Source of the DNA: Styela clava
Taxonomy: Eukaryota
Reading direction: 5' to 3'
DNA length: 64,000 nucleotides
Assembly (NCBI RefSeq): GCF_964204865.1
Contig: NC_135256.1
Span: 9,238,001-9,302,000, forward strand
The translations under genes and the position numbers were made by a program. Positions 4,931 through 63,741 of this stretch are shown here, piece by piece. Position 1 is the first letter of the stretch, and each line of letters begins with the position of its first letter. Below the pieces are notes generated by a model. The model was not told the origin of the DNA, did no database searches, and saw nothing but the letters and a program-made list of their open reading frames with translations.

Positions 4931-4944
4931 CCTTAGCGCAATGA

Positions 4945-10206: not shown

Positions 10207-10298
10207 GAAGTATTTGTACCAAGATGGCGCACAACCTGAACACTGTATGGTTACCAGGTTAGGGTTCAGAATGTGCGTCATCTTGGACCGAATACTTT
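10207..10298. repeat. Short hairpin repeat, copy 2
   Basis: AAGTATTTGTACCAAGATGGCGCACAACCTGAAC...GTTCAGAATGTGCGTCATCTTGGACCGAATACTT. Confidence 0.75.
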
Positions 10299-11975: not shown

Positions 11976-12847
11976 ATTGCGCTAAGGCAAATTAATGTGT
12001 CGGTTTCTGCTTGTCTAAAGCCTTGCATAGAGTGAAAGCGTTCCACGTCCTATTAATAAAATGTGGCCCAATACATGATCAGTCTCTGGATATTAAATAA
12101 CAAGTCTTTATGTCTGCGGCACCTAACCTCAATCATTGCGTGAATTAAATGTTCTTTCTGTTTGTCTAAAGCCTAGCTCAGAGCGGTATCGTATATCACC
12201 CTATTAATAGATCGTAGCACAATACATGAGCTATTGCTGGACATAAAATAATAAGTCTTTATGTGTGTGGTACCCAACTTCAACCATCGCGTAAAATAAC
12301 ATGTATTTTCTGCTTGTCTAAAGCCTTGGTTAGAGTTGTATGGTATAACGCTCTATTTTAGATTGTAGCACGATACATGAGCTATTGATGGATAGAAATT
12401 GGTCAGAATGGGATATCGTGAACGTTCCTCGGCGACAATTTAGTCGCTTGTGATTCTTGTGTTTATTTTGAGCTCTGTACAACGACCCCGATAAGAGAGA
12501 GGTCGCTGACGTATTGAGTTTGTTGACATACTCGTAGGCGCCATCACGGGTGACCGTCGCTATACTTTGGCAAGCTGTATTTCGTTATTGTGACGTCGCA
12601 GTGACGTAATTTTTGGATGACGTCATCAGATAGGGGTCAGGAATCATATATCCAAAAATTGTTACGCCACGCCCACTAGAAGTTATTCAGGTAAGAAAGT
12701 ACATGAGACCCACACTTATTGAGTTTGCCACTTGCTACACTTTAAAGATTATTTCGTCTTTCCAGAATTAGGTTTGCTTTTTTTTGTATATTCATGGGGG
12801 TTACTTGAGTCCCTGAAATGTTTCATGTTGCCACTTGCCACTTTAAA

Positions 12848-12950
12848 GGATAGGATATGATTTACATATTTATCCCGAGGGAGAGGAAAGCCGATAAAAC
12901 GACTTAATCATATGGCGAACCACCGCCTCTCGTTCGGTTACCAGTCCATC
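12848..12950 (-). mobile_element. 3' fragment of the tRNA-derived SINE
   Basis: Matches 27531-27630 (GGATAGGAT..TTTACATATTTATCCC..GGAGAGGAAAGCCGATAA); other 3' fragments at ~37320-37362 and ~52930-53030. Confidence 0.75.
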
Positions 12951-13195
12951 GGGTCTTACGAGGGCACAACAAAATTTGCTATTGCAGTATTGGTTGTATG
13001 CAGTTTACAATTTTCCCAACCATGGCATAAATGTTAGCATAAATAATCCTTACGAGTGGAGGGCAACTCGCCATGGCTGCATGGTGGCTAACTCATAACC
13101 ATCCTCCCTACTGCCTCTCAGTCTCGCATCCTTAATGCGAAATTTCAACAATGTTTTTATACAGGTATTTAGCTCTGTTCTGTAATTAGAAAAAT

Positions 13196-13558
13196 ATGAA
13201 TAAATGTATGACAACAGAAGATGGTTTTTGTTCAAAATGTGGAGCCATTTTACCACTGCCTGTTGATTCTATGCAATCATACATTACTTGCATCTGTAAG
13301 TCAAGAATTCCATGTTCAGAGTTTAATAATATGATTGTAGCTAAAGCTGATATAATACTAAATGAAATTAGAGGCAAATCTACAAAGAAAAAGGCAAGGG
13401 ATGACAAATCTTCTGGTCCTAAGTTAGAAAGACTATGTGGACATTGCGGGCATAATGAAATGACATACAAAACTCAACAAACTCGATCAGCAGATGAAGG
13501 AATGACCATATTTTATTATTGCTTGAAATGTGGATCATTAGAAAAGGAAGATTCGTAG
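13196..13558 (+). CDS. POLR1H: DNA-directed RNA polymerase I subunit RPA12, intronless CDS
   Basis: N-terminal FCSKCGAILP zinc ribbon; C-terminal TFIIS-like ribbon CGHCGH..MTY...QTRSADEGMTIFYYCLKC; 120 aa. Confidence 0.95.
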   Translation: MNKCMTTEDGFCSKCGAILPLPVDSMQSYITCICKSRIPCSEFNNMIVAKADIILNEIRGKSTKKKARDDKSSGPKLERLCGHCGHNEMTYKTQQTRSADEGMTIFYYCLKCGSLEKEDS

Positions 13559-21760: not shown

Positions 21761-23266
21761 TTACTCTTCGTCAATGTATAACATTGTTCGGTCAGTGAGG
21801 CCGAGATCCTTTAACGTTCTTTTCCAGTTTTTAAGCTTCTCTTTTGGCACTTGCAACATAGAGTATACAACGCATCTTCTAATAGGAGCTTTCATTTTAG
21901 TTTTTGCAAAGTTCATCACATCATTTATAGTGCTTGTTGGGGCGAAGTATCTCTCTACTCTTTTACCATCTGGTAACTTAAGTGCTAATCTCAATCTTTC
22001 CTCTCCTGCTGCGGGTTCCGTCTCTGCCCCATTTTTCCGGTCTCCTTGACCAGTATTTTTAGCTCTTGCAGTGCGTGGAGGGAAAACAGATTTTGTTGTC
22101 ATCAAGGAACTTCTAAACTTCTTGTGTTGGGGGCTGTCTTGGTTGTTAATATTGTTCTGTTTTCCTGTGCCATTGCTAGCTGCTGTGCGTTTCATTTTGG
22201 ATGCAGAGTGACTGCTATTTGTTTCTTGTTTGAAATCTGACACGCTCGAATCACTTTTATTCAAGTTCGCAGTAGCGCTGTCAAGAATCATCTGCTGGGC
22301 AAAGGAAGACAATAAATCCAATTCTACAACACTCTCTGTTGGGCTTATAACTCTGAAATCACTATGGTCTGGCGTCTTTGGAATCATTGGGAGAATACTG
22401 TATTTTGATAGCGATGATACAGGCCTTGAGACTTCAGGAAACTGAGATGGATCCGGGCCTGTTTAAATAAGAATATGGTTTTAAGTGTCAATGTCGATCC
22501 AGGGTCAAAATTGCCAGCTATCCAGTATTTATGGAATTATGATGCCAAGTTTTACAAAAGTTTTCTAATAAACCCATTGTCCAGTTATGAATCGGCTCAT
22601 CGAGAGGCTATGGTTTGTTGTAGCATGAAAGTCGCTTTACCTCTACTTCGTGATAAAAATGAAAATTTTATTCCTATTACATTTCCTGTGAATGAATTTA
22701 TTATAATCAACCTTCAGAGTTTGTATCTTCTTCAGGTTTCTGTGATGACTTGCTTGGTCTTGAGGATGCATTCCTGTAACTGCTGTTGGGGGGCCCACTT
22801 CGTCTCAGTGAATAGCCTCTGCGACCATAGGAGTGGTTTTGTTCGCTGTACAAATTCAATTAGAAATAATTTCAGATATACATTTACAAACTTCCCCGAC
22901 AGGAGCTGAGATTGTTGCCATCATATTCGTGCCATGGTCGTTTACCTCAAAATACATGTGTCATACTTAAAGCTTGGTTTTACTTATTCATGACAATAAC
23001 TTTGAATATCAATAATACAATAGAGGGTATGGCAACAAAATCAACTAATGGCTGATTTTGAATGTTTTGCTCACTTAATTAAACGAACTACTGTAGTACT
23101 TTCGAATTATCCCTGATAACTCTCATATCTATTCAGCACAGGCAATTCTGTAATGTTACCTTGTGGAAGACGATGTTGGTTCCTGAGTCTGATGTTGTCT
23201 TGGACGCGACGGAGGTGTAGGGCGTGCTTTCCCTTTAGCGGATTTTGGTCTGACTGAACGTTGCAT
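21761..23266 (-). CDS. UBXN10: UBX domain-containing protein 10-like, 3 exons: 23266-23160, 22845-22712, 22458-21761
   Basis: N-terminal RPKSAKGKARP motif; SSLSKYSILP motif; C-terminal UBX domain (LRLALKLPDGKRVERYF.PT...TLKDLGL); splice phases consistent. Confidence 0.85.
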
Positions 23267-23450: not shown

Positions 23451-24736
23451 ACGTGGTGTTTGGAGATTGCTGGCAAATTCAATTTCAAACTTTCCGAAAC
23501 GTGTCATAACAAATACATTTCCTTTAAGTAATAGTACTCAGATTACGAGAACAATTGGAATATTTCCTATTTCGGGAAATATTTTCATGCTTATTTCACA
23601 AACTGATTTACTTGTTTCAAAATTATCATTTTGATTCAAAAATATTTATCTATCTGTTCTTAAAATTAATGATAGCTAATTTAGATCTAGTTTATCACAG
23701 AATTTTTCACTGTAACTAAGCTTGCATTCTTGAAAGACAAGATGACTCTTGATTTATTTGATTTGAAGCAAATTGTGGAAACAAAACTAAAAACTGACAC
23801 CACCAAAGCGTGCTAATGTTTCTGGGCTGCCGTACATACTGTAATTGTTTAGCTAATATCACGGAAATAAATAATCTGGCCGATTATAACTGGTTGTGAA
23901 AAATGATTTATCTCGTTACAACAGCCCGGCCTTGTTTGTGCTTTCTTTTTTCACTCGCTTTCAACGTATGACATATTTTCTAGTGTTCCAGCATTTAACA
24001 ATCAGACTTTTGCACAAAATAAATTATAAATTTGACTCCTTGCATTGCAGTTCTTTTCAGCAATGCCGACGTTTCCAATAGAAGGTGTGAGTCTTTTGAG
24101 GTTAGTGATTTTTTAAAATTAAAACTGAAATCTTTTTTCAACCCGTCAGAAAACTTGTACTTTGTTTTTGGCATTCTGATGATTCAGCGACAGTACAGTT
24201 GGGTGTTATATTAACGTATGGCCCATACTTCATATCATAGCTATGACAACAATTTCTCTCTATTTGAAATAGTGAAGTGAGTTGCAGATCACAGTGGTAC
24301 ATCGGCTGCCCCCGTTAAAAATAATTTTTGTTTCAAACAAAATAATATTTATGTCTTCCATAGTGCATAACTAGAACATTTTAAGTCTGTCGGCCGCGAC
24401 AACTTGCTGTCGGCCGGATTGACAACTTGCTGAAATCGGGATGTATGGTAAACGTAACTAACCGTTATTTACGAGTACCCGTATTAAATAGTACTGGTAT
24501 TTATTTTCATCAAAAAAGCCCAAATTACGCATTTCAATATACATGGAAAGCGTCCAGATGGGATGCAATATGTAGGATCACATTATTTCCACTTTGTATC
24601 AAATTTAACATCTTGCTTTTACATTATTGAATCTAGACTATTCATGAACAAATTGCATGTTCATGTGTTTTATAGGGTCTAATCGATAACTTCAGTTTGG
24701 GTTCTACACGCAATTTAACCAATTTATGGTGACAAC

Positions 24737-25900
24737 ATGGCAAATGATCTCAATAGTATTTTTTCCAAGTTGCGAAACTTCGATGCTTACCCCAAAACTC
24801 TGGAAGATTTTCGCATCAAGACATTTGCAGGAGCAACTGTAACCATCATTTCTTCTGCTATTATGATATTCCTGTTCTTATCTGAATTGAGATATTATCT
24901 CACAACAGATGTCATGGATGAATTGTTTGTAGATATGTCACGTGGTGATAAAATAAAGATAAATGTGGATGTGACCTTCCATTATCTTCCATGTGCTTAT
25001 GTAGCTTTAGATGCCATGGATGTGTCTGGACAACGACAGATCAACGTTCACACAACCTTATATAAGCAAAGATTGGCAAAAGATGGTACTGTAGTTACTG
25101 AGTCCGAAATTGTAGTTTTGGAAGACATCAGACCTAAATCCAATAAAACAGTACCAGATGTGAATGAGTGTGGTAGTTGTTATGGAGCTGAAACCGTAGA
25201 TCTAAAGTGCTGCAATACATGTGACGATGTTCGTGCAGCATACAATAAAAAAGGATGGGCATTTCCAAAAGGTAACATAGTCAAACAATGTGAAAATGAA
25301 CAATTGAAAGAAACGTTGGAGTTACAATCTGGTGAAGGATGTCGTTTGCATGGATACCTCGAAGTAAATAGAGTTGCTGGGAATTTTCACGTTTCCCCTG
25401 GAAAAAGCTATGAAATGGGTCATATGCATGTACATGATATGGCAGCGTTTGGCTCCGGTGCTAAATACAATCTCACTCACACAATCAACCATTTGTCATT
25501 TGGGGATAATTACCCAGGTCAAATATTTCCACTTGATAATCACTATGTCTATGCAGAAGCAGTGGAAATGGTGTTTCAATATTATCTTAAAATTGTCCCA
25601 ACCACCTACATCAAGCTTTCTGGTGATAAGTTGAAAACCAACCAGTTTTCTGTAACGAAACATCAAAAACAACTGTCTTCCAGTGGAGCAGAAACCAGCC
25701 TACCTGGTCTTTTCGTTTCATATGAGTTGTCTCCAATGATGGTTCGCTACACTGAGAAGAGACGTTCATTCTTCCATTTTCTTACATCAGTTTGTGCTAT
25801 TATTGGTGGAGTGTTCACAGTTGCTGGATTGATTGACTCTTTCATATATCATGGGGGTCGTGCATTGCAAAGAAAAATTGAACTAGGCAAAACGACATGA
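24737..25900 (+). CDS. ERGIC3: ER-Golgi intermediate compartment protein 3, intronless CDS
   Basis: FDAYPKTLEDFRIKT, CGSCYGAE...CCNTCDDVR, EGC...GYLEVNRVAGNFH, YELSPMMV, CAIIGGVFTVAGLIDS, KIELGKTT; 387 aa. Confidence 0.97.
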   Translation: MANDLNSIFSKLRNFDAYPKTLEDFRIKTFAGATVTIISSAIMIFLFLSELRYYLTTDVMDELFVDMSRGDKIKINVDVTFHYLPCAYVALDAMDVSGQRQINVHTTLYKQRLAKDGTVVTESEIVVLEDIRPKSNKTVPDVNECGSCYGAETVDLKCCNTCDDVRAAYNKKGWAFPKGNIVKQCENEQLKETLELQSGEGCRLHGYLEVNRVAGNFHVSPGKSYEMGHMHVHDMAAFGSGAKYNLTHTINHLSFGDNYPGQIFPLDNHYVYAEAVEMVFQYYLKIVPTTYIKLSGDKLKTNQFSVTKHQKQLSSSGAETSLPGLFVSYELSPMMVRYTEKRRSFFHFLTSVCAIIGGVFTVAGLIDSFIYHGGRALQRKIELGKTT

Positions 25901-38250: not shown

Positions 38251-38671
38251 TTCCTTGTTATTCTGTCTCTCCCGTTCGACAAGATGTTCCTTTTGCGTGT
38301 GCGTTATTGTACATTCGTATGAAGATAAATAAATCAAAATCTGCGGTAGTCATTTCATATCCATGCCAAGGTCAACGATGCGTTAGTATTTATGTACGTT
38401 TGCTCTGGTTATATAGCGCATACATCCAGACCGATCCAGACCAACGATTAACATATCAGATTAGACAAATGGACAAGCCCACCATCTGTTCCGCATGATT
38501 TCACATTTGATGAACATGCACTGAACTGGAAATATCTATATCTCTGTGTGAACATGTCAGAGCTCGTGATTTCCGTCGCCAGATTGTGGAATCAGCGTTT
38601 CGTTCTGTGGTGAAGTGTACGGTGGATTCTGTTTGTCATTATTTGATCGCTTCGCGTAGTATTTGTCGACC

Positions 38672-39217
38672 ATGAGGCAGTTGAAGTATCACGAAAAGAA
38701 GTTGTTGAAAAAAGTAGATTTTTTCGCTTGGGAAGCGGATAACAATCTTCATGAAATAAAGATTTTAAGGAAATATAGGATACAAAAACGAGAAGATTAC
38801 ACGTCATATAACAAATTGAGTCGGCATGTGCGATCGATAGCGCGCAAACTAAGAGATCTCGAAACCGATGATCCTTTTAGAGAAAGATGTACTGCAAAAT
38901 TATTAGATAAACTTTATAGAATGGGATTAATTCCTACGAAAGAGTCACTGGCATTGGTGGACAAAATAACGGCGTCTACATTTTGCAGGCGACGTTTACC
39001 TGTCATGCTCGTTAAGTTGCGCATGTCGCAGAATTTGAAAATGGCCACGGAATTGATTGAGCAAGGACATATCAGAATTGGAACAGATGTTGTAACAGAT
39101 CCTGCATATTTCGTCACTAGAACTATGGAAGATTTTATAACATGGAAATCGACGTCTAAAATACGAAAGCACATTATGGAATTTAATGACGAAAGGGATG
39201 ACTATGATTTTGCATAA
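38672..39217 (+). CDS. IMP3: U3 snoRNP protein IMP3, intronless
   Basis: [45 protein letters not shown]...[23 protein letters not shown]; the ATG is at 38672 (the ORF track starts at an upstream TTG). Confidence 0.97.
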
Positions 39218-39871: not shown

Positions 39872-42800
39872 ATGGATGCTTTGTCAAACCTCAAATTGTT
39901 GAAGGTACTTTTTCTGCTTAGTTTTGGATATACTCTTATTGTTGCTGAATGCACGTTAAGTGCCCAAAAAGATTCAATATCCTCACGACACATCTCTAGT
40001 TTGGATCCACTCAAAGACAAAATGTAAGTTATGCCTAAAATAAAGATTTTGCTTTAAAGATTTCATGAAATAAAGACTTTCCAAATACCTCTTAGTCCAA
40101 GGTTGCGAGGTTGAAGGGCCGCAATCGGAGAAAACCCAAAAGTGATCAAAACATTGCGAGTTTACTCACTTTAAATATATGCATGAGAGTTTATTGTCCT
40201 AATCAGTTTTTCATGGAAACAATATGAAACCTTTAGTTATTTTAAAATTGCTTCAATCAATCAAATCGTTTTTATCCGCCTTTTCGGAAAAGCACAATAG
40301 AATGAAAGCAAGAAATATCACGGAATATTTGTATATATTCATGCCTTTGCACCGAATGGACAGGATAGGGCACCTTGAAATGGCTTAAAACTTATGGATG
40401 CGAAACATTTTTATGGAGAACAGCATCGCTCCAAGATTTTTCTGAGAAATATCAGGGTAGTTTTGGTATCTATCCCGTGTTTCGTTTTGTGAAGTCGCTT
40501 AAAATCATATTCTTTCGTGACAGATATTATTTGAAAACACACCAGACACTGTAGTTTAACATTGTTGTGGATACCAAATACGTTTCCTCCCAGTTTACCT
40601 CAGTCACCTTTTTTTCTACACTCATTGTATGATGAATTGTTATATTTGAAAAAATTTAATACTAGCAGGCCTAAGTTCGGACCTCGAACCCAGTGATAAA
40701 AAAAAGTGGATCGCTCTGTCAGCTCTGCGGTTTGTCACTGCTGTCAGATGGCCAACGCTTGAAAATAGTGGAGTGTTTTGACTAAAATAAAGGCACGAAA
40801 TCATCGGCTTGGTCCTGTGTGCACAAGACAATTCATTCCCTATTCACAGATCACAGAATGTCATCCCCATATGGGCATAATCTTGACGTTTATAGATACA
40901 ACAATGAAATTCTGTGATATTAACAAACATCAATCCCGATATCGGGATTAGAAAAATAACTATTCCCAGTTGGAATAGTTTGAAAATAAATCAAAATTGT
41001 TCTGCTGAAGATACAAATATCTGCCAATGGTTTAATAGTGTACGCTAAAATTGTTCTTCGGCCAGAGGGCCGCAGTTTGGACGACTCTGTGTTAGATCAA
41101 TCGCTCTTTTGGCCTTTGCGAAGGAGTATGCTTAATAATTTTCTGATTTTCTCCCATTAGTAATTTCCAAATTCACTTTTTGAAGTGCCTCCATTGTCTA
41201 AGTGAGAATGTCTAAATTATATAGTAGGTGTGGCATAAATACATTGGGGATGTGTACATTTAATAAACGTTCAATCACCTTGGATTTCTCTATATTTTCA
41301 GATTCACCTATAACTTCAAGGATGAAAAGGATCGCGAAGTGTATAAATACACTCTGTCAATTTGTTCTGAAATCAAACCCGGAACAAATATTGCAGTGAC
41401 ACAAGAAGACTTAGTCGACCATAAAACTAAAACCATAGGAAAAATTGACCAAGCTTCAATAAAAAGGGGGAGTAATTGGATAATGCTGACTTTGAAAGGA
41501 GGGGATCCCTACCATACACACTGTGGCCATAGTCCACGACAGGCACATGTCATGATTATGTGTGATAAATATCATTTAGCAGTGAGTTCAACTTGTATGT
41601 TATTTAGGGTGACCATACGTCCTCCTTTTGGAGGATTTGTCCTACTTTTTTGTTTAAAAATTTATGTCCTCCGAGGACGCTCTGAAACATCAAAATGTCT
41701 TCCTTTTTCAAGGGATTAAATATTTAAAATTCTGTTATGATATATATTCTACCGTTTTCGATGTGTTAAGAAAATTTTAAACCAAGTAGAGACTTGTAAT
41801 TATCATTAGACATATGAAAAGCAATAAATTGCGTTGTGATAGCATATCATACGGGGTTACTCTACTAGGAGTCTAGATTAAATGCATACGCTAATTGTTA
41901 TACACACTCGTTTATGACGTAAAAAGTGGATTGTTCTGCAATTATGTTTTACGTCATTTCACCTTATATTTTGCAATAGTAAAATTTTGATTTCGGCAGA
42001 AAATTACATCAGTAACTTCAGTAAATTTGGCGAAACAGACATGATTTAGAAAAAGTCGAACTGATAGCGAAATGGAGTGCATTACTTGCGCTACGCTACT
42101 TTAGCGAATAAAGGCAAGCTCAGCTTGCAGTTGCACGTTGAACATTTGCAGTCGTTTCTTGCTGTGTTTAATGAACAAATAAGGAATAATGATCATTCAG
42201 GGGCTTTCATTATTAAAATCAAAGCTTGTCTTAATGCTGTTGAATTTACGATTGAAGAAAGAAACAAATATTCATACAATCCCGAATCTGAATTGCGTAG
42301 ACTTCAAGCCATTTTTACGATATTGCAAAAAATTACGCGGCAATGTTGACAAAGATTAAAGGAAAAGCCAAATACTCATGATCTAAGGACAAATAAATTG
42401 ATTCTTCTGTAGATGTTTTTTCAATAAAGGCAAAAATGCATTATTTCATTTTCGTCACTTCTATATTTAATCCTAGAGAATTTAGTCACAGGTGAAATAA
42501 GGTTCTACTAATGTTAAGATATCGATGGTTCTACCAAACGATGTGTCCTCCTTTTAGGATTTGGAAATATGGTCACCCTAATGTTATTCATTGATTAGCA
42601 AACTATTTAACCAATACTTGCTGTAATCATCTCTTTATGATTTATAGAGGAACTTTACTGTGCTTTATGAAGAGAATAAAGAGGAAAGTGAAAGTTGTTT
42701 CTATCTGATGGAATTGCAAAGTAGTGTTGCTTGTTCAAATGTTGATCAAGGACTTAGTACAGGATCCATAGTATTGATAGTGTAAGTTATTATATGAGGT

Positions 42801-43381
42801 AAAAATCCACATATGGAATAGATGAAGGGATATATATAACCATCTCTTATGAAGGATTATATACTAGATACATGTAGAAATGAGGCTATGTACATTATAA
42901 TATCATCTCTGTTGCTGCCATTTTCGAACTCTTTGTATTGTGTTTACACTTGCTCGCAGAGAAAATTAAAATGAGTCTTTGCCATTTCAGATTTGCTTGT
43001 GTCATTGCAGTATACTTGGCTGTAGGAATGTTGTACAAGCGTTGCGTACATGGGAAGAAAGGCATGGAACAAGTACCAAACATTGGATTTTGGAAAACAT
43101 GTGGAAGTTTACAAGCCGTAAGTTGCACGCTTTTATAAATTTTGGAATGTGTATTAGGGAGTTTAAGATAAATTTCTATTTATTTGACCTGGGTTATTAA
43201 TTTGTTGGGCATGGCGAAAAAGTATATTCAAATATCTTCAATTCATGTATTTCTGCAGGATGGATGTGACTGGCTTTGTCGTTGCCAAGAATCTGGTTTT
43301 GACTCCAGCAGACCATATCGTGGTATTGCTGATGACCAGCTTGATGATGATGCAGATGATGAAAATTTATTACCCATGTGA
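39872..43381 (+). CDS. M6PR: Cation-dependent mannose-6-phosphate receptor, 5 exons: 39872-40023, 41302-41581, 42648-42781, 42991-43117, 43259-43381
   Basis: Signal peptide; GSNWIML..GGD.Y..HC...RQAHVMIMC; EE...CFYLMELQSSVAC; LSTGSIVLI TM; KGMEQVPN..FW; DGCD..CR; YRGIADDQ; acidic dileucine DDENLLPM; alternative ATG at 39857. Confidence 0.93.
40095..41090. mobile_element. hAT-like MITE in M6PR intron 1; uninterrupted paralog of the element split at 55390/58444-59030
   Basis: Right end GGGCCGCAGTTTGGACGACTCTG; 40441-40955 aligns with 58470-59025. Confidence 0.65.
41605..42580. mobile_element. hAT MITE in M6PR intron 2
   Basis: TIRs TAGGGTGACCATA...TATGGTCACCCTA; perfect 8-bp TSD ATGTTATT; GTCCTCCTTTT subterminal repeats. 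Confidence 0.9.
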
Positions 43382-44013: not shown

Positions 44014-45043
44014 TCATCTGGGTATTTTAAACACCTTCACAGGAAGAGTTTTCTTATTCTTTGGCTCAGGTGGTGTGGCAAAGGTGAATATTTCCTGAGA
44101 AGTTAACGCGCTAGACCATATTCCTTGTCTTTTCCACTGCTGTTCCAAAGTTTCTCTCTCTTCACCTGGTATATCAGGGGGCTCTTGTTCCAAGCCAGCA
44201 GCTTTCCAAATACTGCAAAATAGGTATACTCATATCTATATACAGGCAACTGGCAGCCATATGTGGAATATTCAGAAGATTAAATAATATCAGAAATTGA
44301 AAATATTGTATGCTGATGCCACCAAAATAAAAGAGGAAAAAAAATGTCAAAACCAAGTGCCAAAAGTTATGCATCTCAATATATTGTATCTAATGTAACA
44401 TTGTAACGATTATGTACCTGAATCAAATTTTTTGCTAAAACTAGGCTTTCTCACTTTGCAATTTCATTCTTTACTTTTATTTCTTTCTTCTTTTGCTTAG
44501 CAGTTTCTTTGTGGGCTAGAAGAGTTTCGTTTCTTTTTCGCCACCTCAGATATCTTTGAAAAATGTTACAGAATAAGTTATTTCACCAGTTTAGAACACA
44601 TATGTCAATCAATCAATACATATTCATACAAACACACAAAAAACATGATACCTATGGTGCTTCATTCCTCTTCTTCTCCAATACTTATCTCTCTTATGAG
44701 CTTCAATTTTCGGCCTATTTCCCAAATTTGGATCAAGTAATGGAACTTTTGATTCATTTTCTGGCTCTATAACCTCCGGCATGATTGCAATTGGGATTCC
44801 AAAAATATAATTGTCCAGATTTCTTATAATAGATGGGGTTTTGTACACAAGAGATCCCTTGACAGGATCAATCATATCATTGTTTGGCACTGATTTCAGT
44901 CTGATATTATGAATATTCAGTAGTGCGATGTGAGAACATAATTTTGAAGTTGAGTGTGGTCCATGTAAATCCATTCCAAAATTTCTTGATATAAATTTAT
45001 TCAATGCACCAGCACATGACAAAGCAAACCTGCTAGGCTGCAT
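44014..45043 (-). CDS. AURKAIP1: Aurora kinase A-interacting protein / mitoribosomal mS38-like, 3 exons: 45043-44652, 44553-44455, 44212-44014
   Basis: RRRGMKHHRYLRWRKRN parallels RRRKMNHHKYRKL; IWKAAGLEQEP parallels IWLKAGLKEAP; splice phases consistent. Confidence 0.8.
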
Positions 45044-45590
45044 GATGCTGTACTAAAAGTCTCACAATTCCAAAGATACAGTAGACTACCGTATGTCAGT
45101 CTTGTAACAGCCAAAAACTGAACAATGTAAAAACAGTTAGTGGTCCTTTTCTATAGGTAGTGCCACCTGCAAATTTATTTCCTATTTATTTCCCCCCCCC
45201 CATTAACTCTTGAAACTGGTTTGCAGTTAAAATAAGATATCTAGCTGTTTCCGAGGAGGGTTGCCTACGCAGTACTAACAAACTTACCTGTAGGTAGGGT
45301 AACTAATTTTATTGAATTGATGAATAACAAATCTCTCTCTCATTATTCAATTTTCGGTCTTTTGGCTCTGACACTCGCTACCTGCCACACTTGGTTTAGA
45401 ACCAAAGTTACCCTAGCAGACATCTCTCAGCGGACATCTCTCTCGTTTTCGGAACGGTAAAATAGCGTTGCCAGAAAACGATTTAACATGGCACTCAAAT
45501 GCCGCGTCGGAAAAAAGGAAAGCTAGTCGCAAAGTACTTGCCAGATTTACGGCGAAATTTTGCTACACTCGGAATTACACAAAACATTAC

Positions 45591-48105
45591 ACATGGCCCA
45601 AACAGGAATTTTACATCAAAATTAATAAATATCAGTATTTCAACCCCAAATTCTGTACTTTTCGATTACGTGCCCCACTTTTGAATAAAATATCCTAGAA
45701 GAACATATTGTAAAGTAACCTCGAACCAAGTTTGAGAAAAAGTGTATGTCGGGAACATATATTAATATATTGTTAAACATGGCCCAAACAGGAATTTTAC
45801 ATAAAAATTAATAAATATCAGTATTTCAACCCCAAATTTTGTACTTTTCGATTATGTGCCCCACTTTTGAATAAAATATCGGCATTTTAACCAAAAATTC
45901 TGTACTATTTGATTACGTGCCCCACTTTCAGATAAGATATTTCAAAAAAAATACTGTGAAGTCATCTCGAACCAAGTTCCAGAAAAATTGTATGTCGGGA
46001 ACATATATTATTATCTTGTCAAACATGGCCCAAACAGGAATTTTACATCAAAATTAGTGAATATCGGCATTTTAACCCAAAATTTTGATCTTTTCGATTA
46101 CGTGCCCCACTTTCGAATAAAATATCCCAAAAGAACATATTGTGAAGTAGCCTCGAACCAAGTTTGAAAAAAATTGTATGTCGGGAACATATATTAATAT
46201 CTTGTTAAACATGGCCCAAACAGGAATTTTACATCAAAATTAGTAAATATCGGCATTTTAACCCAAAATTTTGGATTTTTCGATTACGTGCCCCACTTTT
46301 GAATAAAATATCCCAAAAGAACATATTGTGAAGTAACCTCGAACCAAGTTTGAGAAAAATTGTATGTCGGGAACATATAATAATATCCTGTTAAACATGG
46401 CCCAAACAGGAATTTTACATCAAAATTAATAAATATCAGTATTTCAACCCCAAATTTTGTACTTTTCGATTACGTGCCCCACTTTTGAATAAAATATCCT
46501 AGAAGAACATATTGTGAAGTAACCTCGAACCAAGTTTGAGAAAAATTGTATGTCGGGAACATATATTAATATATTGTTAAACATGGCCCAAACAGGAATT
46601 TTACATCAAAATTAGTGAATATCGGCATTTTATCCCAAAATTTTGGACTTTTCGATTACGTGCCCCACTTTTGAATAAAATATCCCAAAAGAACATATTG
46701 TGAAGTAACCTCGAACCAAGTTTGAGAAAAATTGTATTTCGGGAACATATATTAATATATTGTTAAACATGGCCCAAACAGGAATTTTACATCAAAATTA
46801 ATAAATATCAGTATTTCAACCCCAAATTTTGTACTTTTCGATTACGTGCCCCACTTTTGAATAAAATATCCTAGAAGAACATATTGTGAAGTAACCTCGA
46901 ACCAAGTTTGAGAAAAATTGTATGTCGGGAACATATATTAATATATTGTTAAACATGGCCCAAACAGGAATTTTACATCAAAATTAGTGAATATCGGCAT
47001 TTTAACCCAAAATTTTGGACTTTTCGATTACGTGCCCCACTTTTGAATAAAATATCCCAAAAGAACATATTGTGAATTAACCTCGAACCAAGTTTGAGAA
47101 AAATTGTATGTCGGGAACATATATTAATATCTTGTTAAACATGGCCCAAACAGGAATTTTACATCAAAATTAGTGAATATCGGCATTTTAACCCAAAATT
47201 TTGGACTTTTCGATTACGTGCCCAACTTTTGAATAAAATATCACAAAAGAACATATTGTGAAGTAACCTCGAACCAAGTTTGAGAAAAATTGTATGTCGG
47301 GAACATATAATAATATCTTGTTAAACATGGCCCAAACAGGAATTTTACATCAAAATTAATAAATATCAGTATTTCAACCCCAAATTTTGTACTTTTCGAT
47401 TACGTGCCCCCCTTTTGAATAAAATATCCTAGAAGAACATATTGTGAAGTAACCTCGAACCAAGTTTGAGAAAAATTGTATGTCGGAACATATATTAATA
47501 TCTTGTTAAACATGTCCCAAACAGGAATTTTACATCAAAATTAGTGAATATCGGCATTTCAACCCAAAATTTCGGACTTTTCGATTACGTGCCCCACTTT
47601 TGAATAAAATATCCCAAAAGAACATATTGTGAAGTAACCTCGAACCAAGTTTGAGAAGAATTGTATGTCGGGAACATATAATAATATCTTGTCAAACATG
47701 GCACAATCATGAATTTTACATCAAAATTAATAAATATCAGTATTTCAACCCCAAATTCTGGACTTTTCGATTACGTGCCCCACTTTTGAATAAAATATCC
47801 CAAGAGAACATATTGTGAAGTAACCTCGAACCATGTTTGAGAAAAATTGTATGTCGGGAACATATAATAATATCTTGTCAAACATGGCACAATCAAGAAT
47901 TTTACATCAAAATTAATAAATATCAGTATTTCAACCCCAAATTTTGGACTTTTCGATTACGTGCCCCACTTTTGAATAAAATATCCCAAAAAACATATTG
48001 TGAAGTAACCTCGAACCAAGGCTTTGGAAAATTGTATGTCGGGAACGTATAATATTATCTTGTCAAACATGGCCCAAACAAGAATCCGACTTAAAATTAA
48101 TAAAC
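45591..48105 (+). repeat. Tandem array of 186-bp units (13 full plus 1 partial), left arm of element 2
   Basis: Anchor ACATG at 45591, 45777, 46023, 46209, 46395, 46581, 46767, 46953, 47139, 47325, 47510, 47696, 47882 and 48067; two sequence variants interleave. Confidence 0.96.
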
Positions 48106-48467
48106 AACGCTATCACAACCCAGGATACTGTATACATTATAATGGCGTGCCTCAATTTAAGTAAGATAACATAAACGAATTGTGAAATCATCTCGTTCTT
48201 TCATACTAGGGATCTATCTTATATTTAAAAAAAATTTTTAAAATGGTTGGTCTTAGTAGAAAGCCACCACACCACGTCAAGGTGCCAACCATCGTGGCGG
48301 TTTTCATCTCAATATTATAGACTAGACCAAGAGAGAAAAACCTGGCAAAGGGCATGTTAAGCCAAATAGGTAAAACAGACTGATCCTTAGTCTGACTTGA
48401 ACGATGTACCTAAAAAAAATGAGAATGTAAATGATCATATCTAGTTGAATATTGCTTTGCATGTAAT

Positions 48468-51080
48468 TTAGCATCGAATGCACTTTTTGCAATTCCATTC
48501 TATTTCGCTGTTTTCCAGTGCCTCAACTGGCACTGAAATACTACAACATTTCGGATGGTACCATTTTAAACATGAAGTGCATTCGATCATGGTCTGATTT
48601 TCAATGTAAGACAGTTGGCAGTTGCAAAAAATCGGAATTTCCAATCGCCTGGGCGCGGGTATAACACGTTTCTTGTTGATGTTAAATACCGACGAAAAAT
48701 TTTCAGAGACTACACCATCGCATATTTTCTTCCTAAGATTTTTCTCGTCAAATAGGATATGCTCTGGTCGTATTTTGTTACATATAGGGCTATGCAAAAA
48801 CTAATCGAGAATGGGCCACATGATGCACCTAAAGTTTGTTGCTGGACAACGGGGAATTCAATTTGTACTTTATTTGTTTATTCCTTGCCTTGGCCGCATA
48901 AGAAGCGAAATCGCATATTTGTCATTTTCATTGTACTTCATATAGGAGCTATCATAAATCTGTATAGTATTTTGGTCGGCGGTGAATATATTTGATGCTG
49001 TTACCCAGTGATTTTCGTGCACAAATAAAATTTGAACAAATTTTTCAGAAGGAACATACACTTTAGGGCCAGATAGCGTTGTATAAAAAGTCGTGCTTTG
49101 CAACCCGTCTATTTCAGAATACCGAGATGACAAAATTAATTGTGCGGTGTTCATAATATCCGAGGTAAACCAGTCTCTTCTAAAATTAGTTTTGGAATTC
49201 ATTATTTTATGATCGACATCAGATAAATGTACAAATTTTTGGAATGGAATTTTCGGTGAGACGAACCGCAACATCATAGATTGTGTAGTAGACGCTTCGT
49301 CAGCTTTTATTAGAATTGGGCTATCGTTATTAGAAAGTTCTTGAGGGCGAAACATCTTTAGAGGTCTAATGGGGGGCTGAAGATACACTCCTTTACATTT
49401 GTCTTTACCCTGAATTCGGGATCGTTTACTCCATTTCTCAATTTCTTGGTCAATTTGGTCATTGTTTTCAACTTTCCTTTTTTTTGGACAAACAATCAAA
49501 TTATCTTCATATTCCCTAATCAAAGAGTCATGGAGTTCATCATAAACTATAGCAATCTCGTCAAGACGTTTAAATCGTCTGTTGTTTAAACGAGTTCGCT
49601 TTAGTTCCTGCTGACTTTTTTCCATGATTCCCTGAGTGCGATTATCTCGCGATATGTTTTGTTTCTCAGAAGCTGAGACTCTTGCATAAAAAGTCGAATA
49701 TTTCAAATAGCCAATTGAATTACCATATCTTCCCAAATCACCTACCATCAAACTTCCCCAGAGACATATCTTCGGGACATAGAACGTTTTAAATTTGGAC
49801 AATATTTCCGGGCAGTAAAAATTGTTGGAACCCAAAATTTCTGCATTACTTGCTATTTCAATGGCTGACGAAATGTCGCAATTCCTTAATTCCGTAAAAG
49901 GATTTATCTCGCTCAAATCTTCACCTGCTAAAAGTTCATCCGATGTCCCTAGGTCTAATTCACCATCAGAAGGCACAGGAATGTTCTGTTTTTCAATTTG
50001 CTTTTGCAAGTAAGTCCAACTATCATGCATAAGATTAGAATTTTGGCAAATTAATAAAATAGTGAAATGATAAACAATTTTACGGACTGTTTTCAACTCT
50101 CCGCAACAAACGAGTAGTCCAAATATATGCATTAGTTCACGTTTTAATTTTGGTAGTCTACAAGCTAACTGTTTAAAATTCTTCATGGTATGACTCGTGC
50201 ATAAATGAAGAAAGGGGCGTGAAAGCATATCTAAATTTGCGGTACCTTCAATGACAGCGTAACATCGCGAAATGTACGATTCCAAACTTTTCCGCATGTT
50301 AACCTAAATTATTGACTTTATAAGGGCCATGCTTCCATCGCATATAAAAATTTTCGCGGGGAATCTTTTAGTTAGTTTGGAAACATCACAACGGAATTGC
50401 ATGAGAGAGTTCGAAATATTTGGAATATTGTGCCGATTTGTTACAAACGTGGCAACGGCCAGGGGTGATTTGCCTTTTTGTGGATGACGCGTAACAATTT
50501 CATAAACGTAGTATGGACTATGCCCACCGGACGCCAAAATTCCACCAGTAGCGTCAATGTATATAATGTCAATAGAGGAATTTTGAATGAATTTTTTTAC
50601 CGAAGCCTCTGACCAAAACATAATACCCGAAGGAACCCTTGAAATTTGCTGCAAGGTTCCACGAATTACTTGATTTTTGGACCTTTCGTACTGCAACTTC
50701 CTCAGTGAATATAGCGAATCCCATTGGTTGCCGGGGTCGGGGACACGGATAACCCTAGATTCATGACGTGCCTTTTTTAAAACAGCTTGGAATGGGGCAT
50801 CGTCCCTGTTACCAGAATGAAAGACTTCAGACGAGAGAGCACCTATCTTTTTTGAATAAATCTTACGAGGGAGAACATGAACCAATTTTTCCTGAAACTC
50901 TTTCCTACGTTTACCTTTAAGTCTCATTGATTTTAACCCAATATGGCGAATCTTGCCTGTGTATGAAATATGAAACATGCGGGGGTCTTTCCGATAGGAT
51001 ACTACAGAAATTTTACGACTGCAACCTGTAAAGCAACAATGCCCACTACAAGCAAAAAGTGGGGCACGTGATCGAAAAGT
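48468..51080 (-). pseudogene. Disrupted MULE/NOF-like DDE transposase fused to a Ulp1-like (C48) protease and a PHD finger
   Basis: Zn-finger-like GHCCFTGC..YTGKIRH; IYIDATG (D1), ICDGSMAL (D2), CTSH (CxxH), RTQGIMEK (E); protease NHWVT, IYDS, QQTLGASCG; PHD FCNC..IECTSCLKWYHPKC..WNCKKC. In-frame TAG at 50304-50306 and two frameshifts near 48875 and 48785. Confidence 0.88.
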
Positions 51081-51640
51081 TCAAAATTTTGGGTTAAAAT
51101 GCCGATATTCACTAATTTTGATGTAAAATTCCTGTTTGGGCCAAGTTTAACAAGATATTAATATATGTTCCCGACATACAATTTTTCTCAAACTTGGTTT
51201 GAGGTTACTTCACAATATGTTCTTCTAGGATATTTTATTCAAAAGTGGGGCACGTAATCGAAAAGTACAAAATTTGGGGTTGAAATACTGATATTTATTA
51301 ATTTTGATGTAAAATTCCTGTTTGGGCCATGTTTAACAAGATATTATTATATATTCTCGACATACAATTTTTCTGAAACTTGGTTCCAAATGACTTCACA
51401 ATATGTTTTTTTGAGATATCTTATCTAAAAGTGGGGCACCTAATCGAAAAGTACAGAATTTGGGGTTAAAATGCCGACATTTATTAATTTTAATGTGAAA
51501 TTTCTTTTTGGCCATGTTTGACAATGTAATATTACATGTTCCCAACATATAAATTTCATAAAACTTGAATTAGGATGACTTCAATATAAGTTCTTTTTTT
51601 ATATCATCTTCAAAAATCTGCCCGGCCATCGGAAATCACA
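51056..51640 (-). repeat. Inverted 186-bp array (about 3 units), right arm of element 2
   Basis: Reverse complement of the left unit (AAAAGTGGGGCAC) at ~51056, 51241 and 51427, diverging toward the TIR. Confidence 0.9.
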
Positions 51641-54256
51641 GATAAGTTTCGTGTAATTCCGAGTGTAGCAAAATTTCGCCGTAAATCTGGCAAGTACTTT
51701 GCGACTAGCTTTCCTTTTTTCCGATGCGGCATTTAAGTGCCATGTTAAATCGTTTTCTGGCAACGCTATTTTACCGTTCCGAAAACGAGAGAGATGTCCG
51801 CTGAGAGATGTCTGCTAGGGTAACTTTGGTTGGTTTAGAGTGGAAGATACGGTAAAACGGCGCGAGACATATCTCCATACGACCCCTCCAAATAGAAGAC
51901 AAAAAAATCAATTCACCGTGCCAGAGCATCGACTTCCTTGTTTACTTCGTGACATTGGCTAATCAGAAAAATGCAAAAAGTGACGTAACAAGGCTCCCGC
52001 TCCGACCAGAGACAATGTATAACAATTTGTTGTTATGTAAAATCTATGCTCAGACACTTCCTCACTCTGATAGATTTTCAAGCGTGGTCGTAAACATTAC
52101 CTCGTTTTCGCGTTTTTGAACTCTATTCGTTAGTTTTCTGTTGTGTTTTGGAAACCCAAATATAAATCAGATAACTCAATGATCATTCTGTCTTCCTAGG
52201 AGTTTTAATTTAATTGCAGTAATAAAAAATAAGTGTAGAAATAGCTGTATAAGAAGAATTTTTCGGGGGTCAAAGGACGGGGAAAGGTCCATAGTGGTGG
52301 TAGTCTTTTAGGGATAAATTCGTTATTTCAAGTAAAATTTATAAAAAGACTGAAAATTGCTTATTTCGAAATTCTCCAAATTCATAAATTAGATCGATAA
52401 AGAGCCCGTTGTAAAGGTCTTGTATTAGGAGTCAAGTCGTCTGGATCGGTGTCGTGTCGTCATGTCTTCATCGTTTGTGCTCCGTGTGTATCTACAATAT
52501 TAAACTACATCAACAACGTTCAACAACATGTTCCTATATGCTACATGTTCTTAACTGGCTAAAGTCTGAACGTCACATTAACATTGGTTAATCTGCAAGA
52601 CGATATCGTCGAGATATAAGCCGCTCGAACAGTATAGCCAGAGACATGTTTGTGAACGCTCTCTCAGCTACGCTCTGGGTGGAGTCGTCAAACAAACCAC
52701 GACATGACACGCATTGATCCAGCAATGCAGCAATAAGGGATATCTGCCCTGAGTGCGGAACCGGCCCGCATGACGTCCCACATCTATTTATATGTTCCGC
52801 CAAACCAACACACTTATCCACAAGGGACCTGTGGGAGAGTCCGGTCGAAGCCGCCGTGTTCCTGGGTCTTCAAACACAAAACAACGGAACATTATCTCGT
52901 GTTTATGGGTTTGTCATTGTTAATTGACGGGAAGAGAGAAGCCGATAAGATGGTTTAATTATGTGGCGAATCGCGGTCTCTCGTTCGGCTACCAGTCCAT
53001 TTCGGTATGAGATGGTTATCCAGTTATTTGATTCAAATGCACGAACTTGTATTTCTGAAATGCATCAATTCAAGGCGTTTTAGTTTAGCAGCAGTGATCA
53101 AAAAGTAGTCCCGTAAAAAGCCATTTTAAAATTAGTTAAATGGCAGGTGGGCAAATCTTTCGAAATAAAAGAATGAATATGTAAGCAACTCGCAGATAAA
53201 GCATAAAAGTCCTTAACATATATATGGGAAGAATTTTTCGAAGTTTAGGGATCCGGTGACATAAATTCAGGCGGTTTACAAGACACAGGCCAGGTTTTTG
53301 TGTCCAGAACGTTAAACGTTTACTAAAGCTACAAGGACAAGTAAGCGTAGGCTACCCTCTTCGAGGTTGGCTGGCAATTCTGATAGTAAGGGTTCGTCTC
53401 CTCTGTGGCCTATGGAGTTTTTCTTAAATCTCACATTTTTGCATTAGGGGCGGGGGCCTTGTACAAAAGACCCGGATTGTCAACTCTTGGCCTATAGGCT
53501 ATTGGTACTAGGGGTGACCAGCCTACTTTCGACCGCGATAGACTAAAGCTTGCGATCGACTGATCGGTCATAAGGTCATACACGAAAACGAACGAGTACT
53601 GAATATTCAGATAACTGCAATCGTGCAAAAAAAAGTTACATCGCTGCCAATAAACTGGGCTCTGTGAGCACATTCTTAATGAAATCGGCACAAAATTTGT
53701 ATTTTCCATGTTCCATTTGATTTGTTGATTTGATTATGTAATTGTACCATATTTATTCGAATCATACAATTCAGATCCAGCCTAATTTTTAGTCGTAGGT
53801 ATTGAAAATTCCTCAAAAACCTTGCCAAGTGTCCATGTACTATCTATTCTAAACGACGGAAACTAGATGTGCCGCGGCGCACTATAGAGCACTATATGGG
53901 AACCATCGCAATATGCCACAAGCAAAATGAGTGGATTATACATGAGAGAAAGGTAGACAGACTGGTGTAACTTTATGCCTAATCGTCTAAAATTCACTAA
54001 TAGTTCCTTCCTTAACTAATATAATGATTTGAGTTATCACATAAACTGAGCACCGAAGATGTGTATCTGCTGAGCATTTCAATAAGACAACAAAACACTG
54101 CCCAATGAGAAGTAAAAATACGGAGATACGAAAAGTAATAGCCGTTTTGGAATATATTTTTATGTGCTGGGTGGCGCGACAGCAATTTGTATATGAAGTG
54201 GGTTCGGACCAGTATGTTATGTGATATCCACGCTGGATCGAGAAGTTAACTCTATC

Positions 54257-62267: not shown

Positions 62268-62910
62268 GTATAGGGCAAAGTGTCTATAAGTGTGTTATAG
62301 TCACTTTGGTATAGGGTTGTATCGGACGTGTCCAGATTATGAACGTGTGGGAATTTTTTCAACTGTTTTAATGGTGCAGGCACGACTGTCGTCAATGGAA
62401 ACCGTCTCAGGGCTGCTGTCAAATCATTGATAATGGTCAAATGCAGTTCTGTGTAGCGCAGACGGGATTTCCTACACATAATGCAGTTTTGGTGTCAAAA
62501 CATTACCAAGAGACAGAACTGCAGTTGCCGTGATATCGTTAACATTGCATAATGAGGTGCATATATATGTATAAATGACAATATAAAAGTTACGGTGTAG
62601 GAAATGATAGTTAAAGTCTGTTGAAATGTTTCGAATTGTATGTTACCTGTATCGGACTCGGTCTGTCTGTCTGTGTAAATTGTTGTCTTCTTTTAAAATA
62701 TTTCTTGGTGTCATAGTTAATGATTGATTTTTGAGTGTGAGAGAGTAATAATTTAAAAAAAGTGAGACCTCAAGACAGAAATTACATGAATACCATTTGA
62801 ACACATTGCAAAGTTTCAGACTTGTTGAAAAATAACGAACCTTCTGTATTGTTTAATTTGGACTGCATGCTTGATATAGTCTCTATTTAAATACTTGAAT
62901 TCAAAGAAAA

Positions 62911-63741
62911 ATGGATACAAACGATATTCCAGATTTGGATGATATGAGTGATCTTGTACAAAATATCAAATTAAACAAACAAAAGACTTATCAACACCCG
63001 ACATCTCAAAAAGGTGATCACACTGAACAGCAAAAAGTAGTAGAAAATGCAGCGAACTGTAAAAAAGTTCCGCCCATAAAGTTGCCCTCGCAATTTGGTG
63101 GTATGAAGAAAGGATTTCTTTTTGGCGGAAATAGGGGTACGAAAGCAACACACAAACCTAATTCTGCAAAATCAAAATTGAAAGATCAAGAAACTGACAT
63201 TATTGTTCCAAAACATCCAAGTGAAACTCAAAAAAATCCACTTGTTCTAGATGATGTTCAGGAAGCTATGAAAGAAAGTGGAATTACAGATAAATCATGG
63301 GTGACTACCGATTTACTAAAACAGGTTGAATCGAATGAAAGACTTTCTAATCAGCTTTCGGACCCAAATATTTCAAAAGCAATATCATGGATGCAAAGAG
63401 ATCCAAAAGGTGCTATGGAGTATTATAAAAATGATGTTGAAGTTCAGAATTTTTTTAAAGAATTTTATGGAATTTTGGGTAATCATTTTACTAATATTGG
63501 TGCAGAGCAAGAAGAGAAAACTAGTAATGTCAATTCAGAAGACGAAGCCGCCATGAGTGATATCCTTGCGAATCCTGAAATCAGGGAAATACTTTCTAAG
63601 CCTGATATACAAAAATTGATAGAACTTGTTCGAAATAATCCAGACGAAGCACAAAAGCATCTTAATGCTGGTAATCCTGCCTTCAGGGCAGATGTAAATA
63701 AATTAGTGTCTGCTGGTATTCTGGGTTTCCAGCCACAGTAA
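62911..63741 (+). CDS. Uncharacterised STI1/DP-repeat co-chaperone-like protein, intronless, 276 aa
   Basis: Two DP/STI1-like helical repeats (LSDPNISKAISWMQRDPKGAMEYYKND.EVQ; ILANPEIREILSKPDIQKLIELVRNNP..KLVSAGIL); N-terminal FGGMKKGFL motif. Confidence 0.75.
   Translation: MDTNDIPDLDDMSDLVQNIKLNKQKTYQHPTSQKGDHTEQQKVVENAANCKKVPPIKLPSQFGGMKKGFLFGGNRGTKATHKPNSAKSKLKDQETDIIVPKHPSETQKNPLVLDDVQEAMKESGITDKSWVTTDLLKQVESNERLSNQLSDPNISKAISWMQRDPKGAMEYYKNDVEVQNFFKEFYGILGNHFTNIGAEQEEKTSNVNSEDEAAMSDILANPEIREILSKPDIQKLIELVRNNPDEAQKHLNAGNPAFRADVNKLVSAGILGFQPQ

Follow-up and report, generated by a model that had tools for sequence, protein, structure and literature searches.

The element and its coding frame

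The window analyzed here is the whole stretch of 64,000 nucleotides from the ascidian Styela clava (contig NC_135256.1, positions 9,238,001 to 9,302,000), and it harbors a foldback element of 6.43 kb at 45401-51830 (Table 1). The element lies between two copies of a 9-bp target-site duplication (TSD), and its terminal inverted repeats (TIRs) and inverted arrays of a 186-bp unit enclose a minus-strand coding frame for a putative DDE transposase followed by a C48 protease-like domain and a PHD finger. A first-pass annotation made from the sequence had described a foldback Mutator/NOF-like element at this place, and this identity fits the Rehavkus/NOF group, which is related to Mutator. We consider it probable that an internally deleted, non-autonomous foldback DNA transposon of the Rehavkus/NOF type, with the tail roles proposed below, is the best explanation of the whole.

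The two TSD copies are indeed identical over the 9 bp first proposed; from the base composition, the chance of such a match is about 7e-6, and the 9-mer occurs three times on the plus strand of the window, two of which flank the element. The TSD can also be read as nested duplications of 7, 5 and 3 bp, since part of the target mirrors the end of the TIR; the longest exact reading is 9 bp. The TIRs, initially put at about 182 bp, contain 2 mismatches in the first 180 bp and align by BLAST over 185 bp (98.4%). A short direct repeat, GACATCTCTC, stands in the left TIR at 45419 and 45433.

Thirteen unit starts were found in the left array within 45592-47883, together with an internal 60-bp duplication near 45813-45928; a 14th start at 48068 is decayed (69%). 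The left array decays gradually, while the right array stops abruptly in a half unit of 96% identity. Two variants of the unit, differing around unit positions 32-48, partly alternate across 45592-47883, which is a hint of a 372-bp higher-order repeat, and both variants are present in the right array. Neither a second copy of the element nor a related open reading frame (ORF) was found elsewhere in the window, Rfam yielded no match in the window, and the region of the 3' spacer (48130-48470) contains no AATAAA or ATTAAA.

Table 1. Features of the foldback element in the Styela clava window
Feature	Positions	Strand	Remarks
Left TSD, 9 bp (TGGTTTAGA)	45392..45400	.	exact match to 51831-51839
Left TIR, ~180-185 bp	45401..45585	+	98.4% to right TIR
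Left subterminal array, 186-bp unit	45592..48200	+	13 units, decayed 14th, 60-bp duplication
3' spacer, stop codon to left array	48200..48467	-	
C-terminal PHD finger (C4HC3) and stop 48470-48468	48468..48632	-	PF00628 E 8e-7, above curated cut-off
C48/Ulp1-like (CE clan) cysteine protease	48690..49175	-	Trp 49172, His 49010, Asp 48953, Gln 48838, Cys 48820; profile A3 matches both frames
Frameshift 2, 2 extra bases (TA repeat)	48784..48790 (near 48787)	-	main frame restored; comparison with P0001
Frameshift 1, 4 extra bases	48870..48885 (near 48880)	-	stop at 48872-48870 in main frame
DDE catalytic region with helical insertion	49400..50600	-	DATG 50555 (D 50555), CDG 50342 (D 50339), CxxH 50201 (50201-50190), W 49760, E 49622
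Premature TAG within catalytic region	50304..50306	-	comparison with P0001
Truncated N-terminal region, back half of WRKY/GCM1-like zinc finger	50600..51056	-	two Cys and His kept, first conserved Cys lost
Deletion junction, right array joined to coding frame in T run	51050..51060	-	microhomology inferred
Right subterminal array, inverted	51055..51645	-	91-bp half unit, 2 full units, decayed outer piece
Right TIR	51646..51830	-	matches left TIR
Right TSD, 9 bp	51831..51839	.	exact match to left copy

The coding frame runs on the minus strand from 51056 to the stop at 48470-48468 and comprises 860 codons after 6 extra bases are discounted, in agreement with the single, nearly continuous frame of that length noticed at the outset. 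The window frame, read through its stop, was searched against 6,699 candidate proteins and gave 20 matches, the best of which are two S. clava proteins, P0001 (1023 aa, 73%) and P0002 (582 aa, 97% over 223 residues); further matches came from Phallusia, teleosts and the leech Helobdella. P0001 is a single uninterrupted ORF with transposase, C48 protease and PHD finger, and residues 164-1023 of its 1023 align by tblastn to one frame of the window (69%). A word-index search with the P0001 tail recovered nothing besides P0001 itself (1 of 379 candidates), and a search among shorter proteins gave 5 matches (35-44% identity), none of which was another S. clava copy.

The point lesions of the window copy were defined by tblastn of the intact sister P0001 against the window. 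They are the premature stop and the two frameshifts in Table 1; the frameshifts (+4 and +2) cancel each other, and the stretch that they enclose encodes the protease Gln and Cys, which are out of frame with His and Asp. The three lesions counted in the first-pass annotation are thus real, but they omit a fourth and larger one at the N-terminus. P0002, identical to the window frame at 217 of 223 residues (97%), extends 359 residues upstream of the point where that frame meets the right array, and these residues have no match anywhere in the window (best E 2.0). The last ~80 of them (~280-360) match P0001 and 31 other proteins. The deleted N-terminus comprises at least 65 conserved residues and up to 359, and the window copy has lost the family-conserved W114, W131, C146 (56 of 58 rows) and F150 (P0001 numbering). 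A zinc finger with C171, C176 and H202 as its further ligands probably had C146 as the first; in this region, profile A4 matched WRKY weakly (E 0.036). The coding frame in the window retains neither an ATG nor a promoter at its 5' end.

Since the upstream part of P0002 is absent and the right array is broken in the middle of a unit, the promoter and the gene start, along with the inner part of the right array, have been lost by internal deletion. Thus the asymmetry of the arrays is at least partly secondary: the counts first given (13 or more units versus about 3) hold, and what they reflect is in part at least a deletion scar. A full-length protein of the family, with zinc finger, DDE transposase, C48 protease and PHD finger in one ORF, would measure about 1,020-1,220 aa. 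The sequence of P0002 may come from a different copy or from another haplotype of the same locus, and its far N-terminus may be an extension of the gene model. That the copy is instead nearly complete by design, with a first exon in the right arm spliced to the AG at ~51047, is very improbable, because a pyrimidine run and then TAG do stand just inside the junction but P0002 crosses the junction uninterrupted, its 359 further residues with the conserved W, W, C and F are absent from the window, and the right array is broken off within a 96%-identical unit. Splice rescue of the 5' end was rejected on these grounds.

With no start codon, a broken zinc finger, a stop in the catalytic domain and Gln and Cys out of frame, the copy makes no working protein; it is internally deleted, non-autonomous and dead. 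Movement in trans would be possible, since both ends are intact. The family had also been called probably young and reconstructable. The present copy cannot be rebuilt from the window given the 5' deletion, and youth is borne out only moderately, by the 98% identity of the TIRs and by 5 differences from P0002 in 222 aa.

Transposase core and place among known elements

A HMMER scan with P0001 over 1.84 billion representatives gave 3,270 matches at E<=0.001, and the best 150 of these were used. In alignment A4 (83 rows, non-gap counts; P0001 numbering), the putative catalytic columns are highly conserved, namely D332 in 74 of 76 rows, D404 in 67 of 69, C450 in 64 of 70, H453 in 66 of 72, W597 in 43 of 46 and E643 in 43 of 45. 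The window copy keeps all six of these DDE/CxxH/W columns, so that the DATG, CDG, CxxH and E motifs named in the first-pass annotation are all present and are conserved among 83 relatives. Together, DDE, (C/D)xxH and W make up the signature of Mutator-like elements (MULEs) and hAT elements (PMC5499845). Compared against PDB, the core profile returned a low-complexity huntingtin artefact and weak WRKY matches, which were set aside.

In the tree of 43 core sequences, from which three near-duplicates and the rows without a parsable core were left out, the window sequence paired with P0001 (100/100) within a clade of 14 rows containing fish and leech proteins (96/94). A further alignment (A2), which combined core and module fragments, was discarded due to misaligned module rows (9-17% identity).

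The element combines the 9-bp TSD, TIRs of 180-185 bp, inverted 186-bp arrays, a single ORF with a PHD finger, and the DDE/CxxH/W residues, which are the hallmarks of Rehavkus/NOF; neither Pfam PF10551 nor Transposase_mut, by which a MULE in the strict sense is recognized, was found. Rehavkus elements of arthropods and annelids have been described as having a 9-bp TSD, TIRs of 26-400 bp, a minisatellite and a single ORF, together with a PHD finger, and as either an outgroup or a subgroup of MULEs (PMC6446971). Elsewhere they are treated as foldback elements with subterminal arrays (10.1101/2024.12.02.626372), or MULE is taken as Mutator plus Rehavkus (10.1101/2021.09.26.461848), and PHD fingers are common accessories of transposons (PMC8557442). 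The Rehavkus elements of Repbase (Rehavkus-1_DY, -1_HR, -1_TC, -3_TC, -2_NVi and 1_AP) share with the window family the TSD, TIR range, ORF, PHD finger and arrays. Compared by eye, the six Rehavkus rows in an alignment in the supplement of PMC13359780 and the relatives found here also share the motif order, which consists of a DATG-type first Asp, D-x-S, C/D-x-x-H, L-W and S/T-x4-E-x5-K. The host list in PMC6446971 holds arthropods and annelids alone, whereas the window element is from an ascidian and has relatives in teleosts; the words 'protease' and 'peptidase' do not occur in the main text of that paper.

The link to NOF came from the medaka relative P0013, whose top Atlas cluster is named NOF-FB 120.7-kDa protein and carries C48 in 45% and PHD in 34% of its 56 members. 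This assignment (score 0.89) is a lead only, as the cluster is possibly P0013's own. Drosophila FB-NOF has foldback arms around a Mutator-related ORF, and Repbase has a Rehavkus entry from Ciona. FB-NOF is likened to the window element through the foldback arms and the cluster name; the arrays of the window element differ in their 186-bp unit.

The order of a C-terminal Ulp1 domain and then a PHD finger on a DDE transposase, as seen in the S. clava family, is also known from Ginger1 and Mutator transposases, in which the two domains have been aligned (PMC2836005). The Ulp1-bearing Mutators there are from hydra, lancelet and plants, so that the earlier statement that some Mutator lineages carry Ulp1 is in print. 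Ginger1 is unlike the window element in having a Gypsy-like integrase and a 4-bp TSD. Given the published Ulp1 and PHD tails on Mutator and Ginger1, and PHD on Rehavkus, the three-part fusion is not new. Muta1 of Aedes aegypti, an active foldback MULE, shares the foldback TIR, the subterminal repeats, DDE with (C/D)xxH and W, and the 8-10-bp TSD class, but differs in its enzyme of 504 aa and 12-bp repeats inside a 145-bp TIR, and no protease or PHD tail is described in the accessible text (PMC5499845).

The C-terminal tail and the surroundings of the insertion

In the window, all four residues of the Ulp1-type His-Asp-Gln-Cys set proposed in the first-pass annotation are encoded, but not in one frame, since Gln and Cys are frameshifted. 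Pfam detected neither C48 nor MULE in the window pieces alone (0 of 5 pieces in one run and 0 of 2 in another), and phmmer of the His/Asp half of the protease found no match in PDB. On the intact sister P0001, C48 (PF02902) scored 25.5 bits against a cut-off of 20.7, and the same profile was found at E<=0.001 in 37 of 50 module rows (i.e., rows with the Styela-type C48 and PHD module). His, Gln and Cys are invariant in all 50 of these rows and Asp is kept in 49, for which reason the protease of the family is very likely active.

The P0001 tail was modelled with high scores (pLDDT 91.9, pTM 0.89) as a CE-clan protease followed by a PHD finger. This was the fold on which the first-pass annotation had staked its reading in advance; furthermore, protease and PHD finger are not separate genes, as both lie with the transposase in intact single ORFs in P0001 and P0021. 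Foldseek with the tail model placed SENP/Ulp1 structures in all of the top 10 rows. In the VIA fold comparison, SENP3 (Z 15.6, rmsd 3.0, 172 aligned), SENP5 (15.2), a NEDD8 protease (15.1, rmsd 2.7, 171 aligned), Ulp1 (14.8) and SENP1 (14.3) ranked above bacterial deubiquitinases and viral proteases (8-13). SENP/Ulp1 and SENP8/NEDP1 thus have the same fold as the modelled domain (Z 14-16, rmsd ~3 A, ~170 residues) and the same His-Asp-Cys triad with an oxyanion Gln, at 14-19% identity to the family protease. The fold predicted for P0001 does not separate SUMO from NEDD8 proteases. The sequence profile of the module matched SENP1/Ulp1 best among proteases (E 1e-9 to 1e-8), and the best phmmer match of P0027 was a NEDD8 protease, albeit weak (E 0.058).

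Asp451 of Ulp1 forms a salt bridge needed for SUMO binding (PMC3216068). At the column matching D451 by motif register (Trp+3), the window and P0001 both have Ser, the next position being Asp, whereas 40 of 48 module relatives have Asp at the column itself. The Ser calls for caution on SUMO specificity and would be no disproof of it. Of the deSUMOylase postulated at first, the C48/CE fold stands, but SUMO specificity is not supported, with SENP3/5, the NEDD8 protease and Ulp1 tied and Ser at the D451 column.

The C-terminal PHD finger, likewise proposed from the sequence, was recovered by Pfam in the window itself. Its module profile matched best, among PHD fingers in PDB, those of PHF2, PHF8, SHL, EBS and BPTF. 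These fingers are readers of H3K4me3, which several of the PDB entry titles state. The PHF2 cage residues Y/Y/M/W align with F/Y/M/W in the window PHD finger; an aromatic residue or Met occupies all four cage columns in 11 of 50 module rows and three of them in 35. The window PHD finger keeps a cage of the H3K4me3-reader type, and histone binding is predicted.

Domains were surveyed in 30 long relatives chosen from the best 150 of the 3,270 HMMER matches. USP/UCH was found in 12 (11 above the cut-off), C48 in 8, USP together with C48 in 6, and PHD in 7 (3 above the cut-off). The surveyed sequences are predicted proteins, of which single fusions may be artefacts, though the pattern recurs. The fish proteins P0006-P0008 have the same order of transposase, C48 and PHD with another C48 subtype. 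In two proteins from cichlids, P0006 and P0007, a macrodomain separates the transposase from the protease, as Pfam showed for P0006, and P0032, P0043, P0047, P0065, P0087 and P0099 are proteins of 1,600-2,100 aa with tandems of USP and C48. Altogether, one transposase clade bears USP, two C48 subtypes, USP and C48 tandems, a macrodomain and PHD as tails.

Among 162 proteins examined, 113 matched the core and 60 the Styela-type module, with 11 matching both (in 5 cases only via an N-terminal PHD finger), and in 49 the module occurred without the core. A Ginger/Gypsy-like W-x-G-P-Y motif lay upstream of the module in two proteins and a SWIM finger in one. In a protease tree of 25 rows, the C48 domains found on transposases of this clade did not group together as one clade (p-AU 0.0135); in this tree, 7 of the 32 rows chosen were unparsable, long branches meet, two of the four 'Ginger' labels are weak, and the module-only rows were picked for their likeness to P0001. 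The protease tree and the distribution of the module suggest that the cassette has been exchanged among transposons. P0027 has a fish-type core with the Styela-type module, while P0005-P0008 carry another C48 subtype, and its composition suggests module exchange within the clade.

Next to the element lies a spliced minus-strand gene (~44017-45290), with a putative 5' exon ending at 45288 and coding exons at ~45043-44652, ~44553-44455 and from ~44212 onward. The element is 113 bp upstream of its strong splice donor (45287) and 358 bp upstream of its ATG (45043), and the observed/expected ratio of CpG climbs from 0.1-0.6 to at least 1.0 at the 5' end of the gene beside the element. The insertion may sit in the promoter or 5' untranslated region of this host gene, a single data point that accords with targeting of promoters. 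Pfam found nothing in it; we take it to resemble the mitochondrial ribosomal protein mS38/AURKAIP1.

A second foldback element occupies 4207-12711 (8.5 kb), with an 8-bp TSD (ACACTTAT), ends starting with GGG, outer arms identical at 352 of 354 bases, and inverted 151-bp and 191/173-bp arrays (~13 versus 7 units). Its decayed 3.5-kb interior gave no significant Pfam match in six frames, and it has no similarity to the element at 45401-51830. The contrast between its very young ends and its old interior suggests a non-autonomous element moved in trans. The window further contains long uninterrupted housekeeping ORFs at 13190-13558 (+, TFIIS-ribbon), 24719-25900 (+), 38660-39217 (+, S4-domain), 21761-22462 (-, UBX-domain) and 62899-63741 (+, STI1/DP-domain). 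The first three look intronless and are presumably RPA12-like, ERGIC3-like and IMP3-like, respectively, these names going beyond Pfam. A multi-exon mannose-6-phosphate receptor-like gene (~41267-43340, +, PF02157; later exons placed by eye) ends ~2 kb left of the element. By eye, a similar short stretch, around GCCGATAA...TATGGCGAA...CTCTCGTTCGG.TACCAGTCCA, occurs at 52900-52990 and 12880-12960, possibly a small dispersed repeat or a fragment of a short interspersed element.

Proposed working of the family and its meaning

By analogy with Muta1, in which the repeats strengthen transposase binding and excision proceeds via flanking-DNA hairpins (PMC5499845), an intact transposase would bind the TIRs aided by the subterminal repeats, excise the element by the DDE hairpin route and insert it with a 9-bp stagger. 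We lean slightly toward a PHD finger that docks the transpososome on H3K4me3 nucleosomes and thereby biases insertion to promoters. The tethered protease would remove a ubiquitin-like tag, be it on the transposase itself, on repair proteins or on chromatin close by. That an intact enzyme acts on ubiquitin-like tags of some kind is likely; roughly half of that likelihood would fall to SUMO and the rest to ubiquitin or NEDD8. Silencing might be countered, the transposase shielded from turnover, or break repair steered, and protecting the transpososome locally is, in our view, no less likely than anti-silencing.

Several observations weigh against a Rehavkus/NOF-type transposon with these tail roles. 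The CxxH motif lies 46 residues past the second Asp, versus the 15-45 quoted in PMC5499845. Neither Pfam MULE (PF10551) nor Transposase_mut matched the window pieces, P0001 or the 30 long relatives, and the core profile finds no solved transposase in PDB, so that the DDE call rests on residue conservation and motif order. The core tree of 43 rows contained no named Rehavkus or NOF sequence. As for the tail, the structure modelled is that of the sister P0001 (261 aa, with 49 module relatives in the alignment) and not of the window copy, and 11 of the 30 long relatives have no protease or PHD tail detected by Pfam, so that elements may do without the tail or lose it often. The position beside a promoter is that of one insertion in a gene-dense genome; the unrelated foldback element, without a detectable PHD finger, also lies ~480 bp upstream of a gene, and MULEs generally insert in or near genes (PMC6446971).

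The tail can be explained in other ways. The substrate of the protease may be ubiquitin or NEDD8, or the transposase polyprotein itself if cleavage is in cis; the protease would then stabilize the enzyme or manage double-strand-break repair at the sites of excision and insertion and have nothing to do with silencing, which we regard as a serious option, though less likely than not. CE-clan NEDD8 proteases, deubiquitinases and viral processing proteases were recovered at Z 8-15, USP tails occur in the same clade, and OTU and Ulp1 tails alternate on Ginger1, for which a role in repair has been proposed (PMC2836005), but the sequence profile ranks SENP1/Ulp1 best (E 1e-9 to 1e-8). Somewhat more doubtful is a dedicated deSUMOylase that undoes SUMO-dependent heterochromatin silencing while the PHD finger targets insertion, which is the function first proposed for this tail. 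SENP/Ulp1 fill the Foldseek top 10 and four of the five top VIA rows, the PHD cage residues are intact, and SUMO is required for piRNA-guided transposon silencing in Drosophila (10.1101/533091, 10.1101/2021.07.27.453956, PMC10363806). On the other hand, the NEDD8 protease (Z 15.1) ties with the values of 14.8-15.6 and is also the best, though weak, phmmer match of P0027 (E 0.058), Ser stands at the Ulp1 D451 column in the window and P0001, and USP is present in 12 of the 30 long relatives, 6 of which have C48 as well. The frequency of USP suggests that what such elements require is the removal of ubiquitin-like tags in general, and not specifically relief from SUMO silencing.

It is improbable that the tail is a passenger, that is, a C48 and PHD cassette recombining among transposons and adding little to transposition. 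The module does occur without the core in 49 of 162 proteins (2 behind W-x-G-P-Y and 1 behind a SWIM finger) and is missing, as judged by Pfam, from 11 of the 30 long relatives, but a catalytic set invariant across modules that are only ~30% identical needs purifying selection, and the module-only proteins are largely partial gene models.

A tail that acts on ubiquitin-like tags within a Rehavkus/NOF-type transposon is the reading we retain. A more speculative and rather unlikely extension of it is that the Rehavkus/NOF transposases are a hot spot of swappable eraser and reader tails, forming a transposon-borne counter-defence steered to promoters by an H3K4me3 reader. If true, animal DNA transposons would themselves encode the enzymes that take ubiquitin-like marks off at the transpososome, and the Styela-type cassette of C48 and PHD would be one shared with other transposon superfamilies. 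The ascidian host and the wide range of swapped tails are modest additions to what is known, and the dead copy of the described architecture bears little weight alone but is useful as a pointer. No biochemical test of a C48 domain fused to an animal transposase was seen in the literature searched, with most subscription papers and Repbase Reports outside its scope. Relative to the host range given in PMC6446971, the present findings extend Rehavkus-type elements to ascidians and teleosts. The apparently intact S. clava P0001 is a ready substrate for the question, posed in 2010, of what the transposon-borne Ulp1, OTU and USP proteases target (PMC2836005), and it likewise bears on whether the PHD fingers of transposases set insertion preference.

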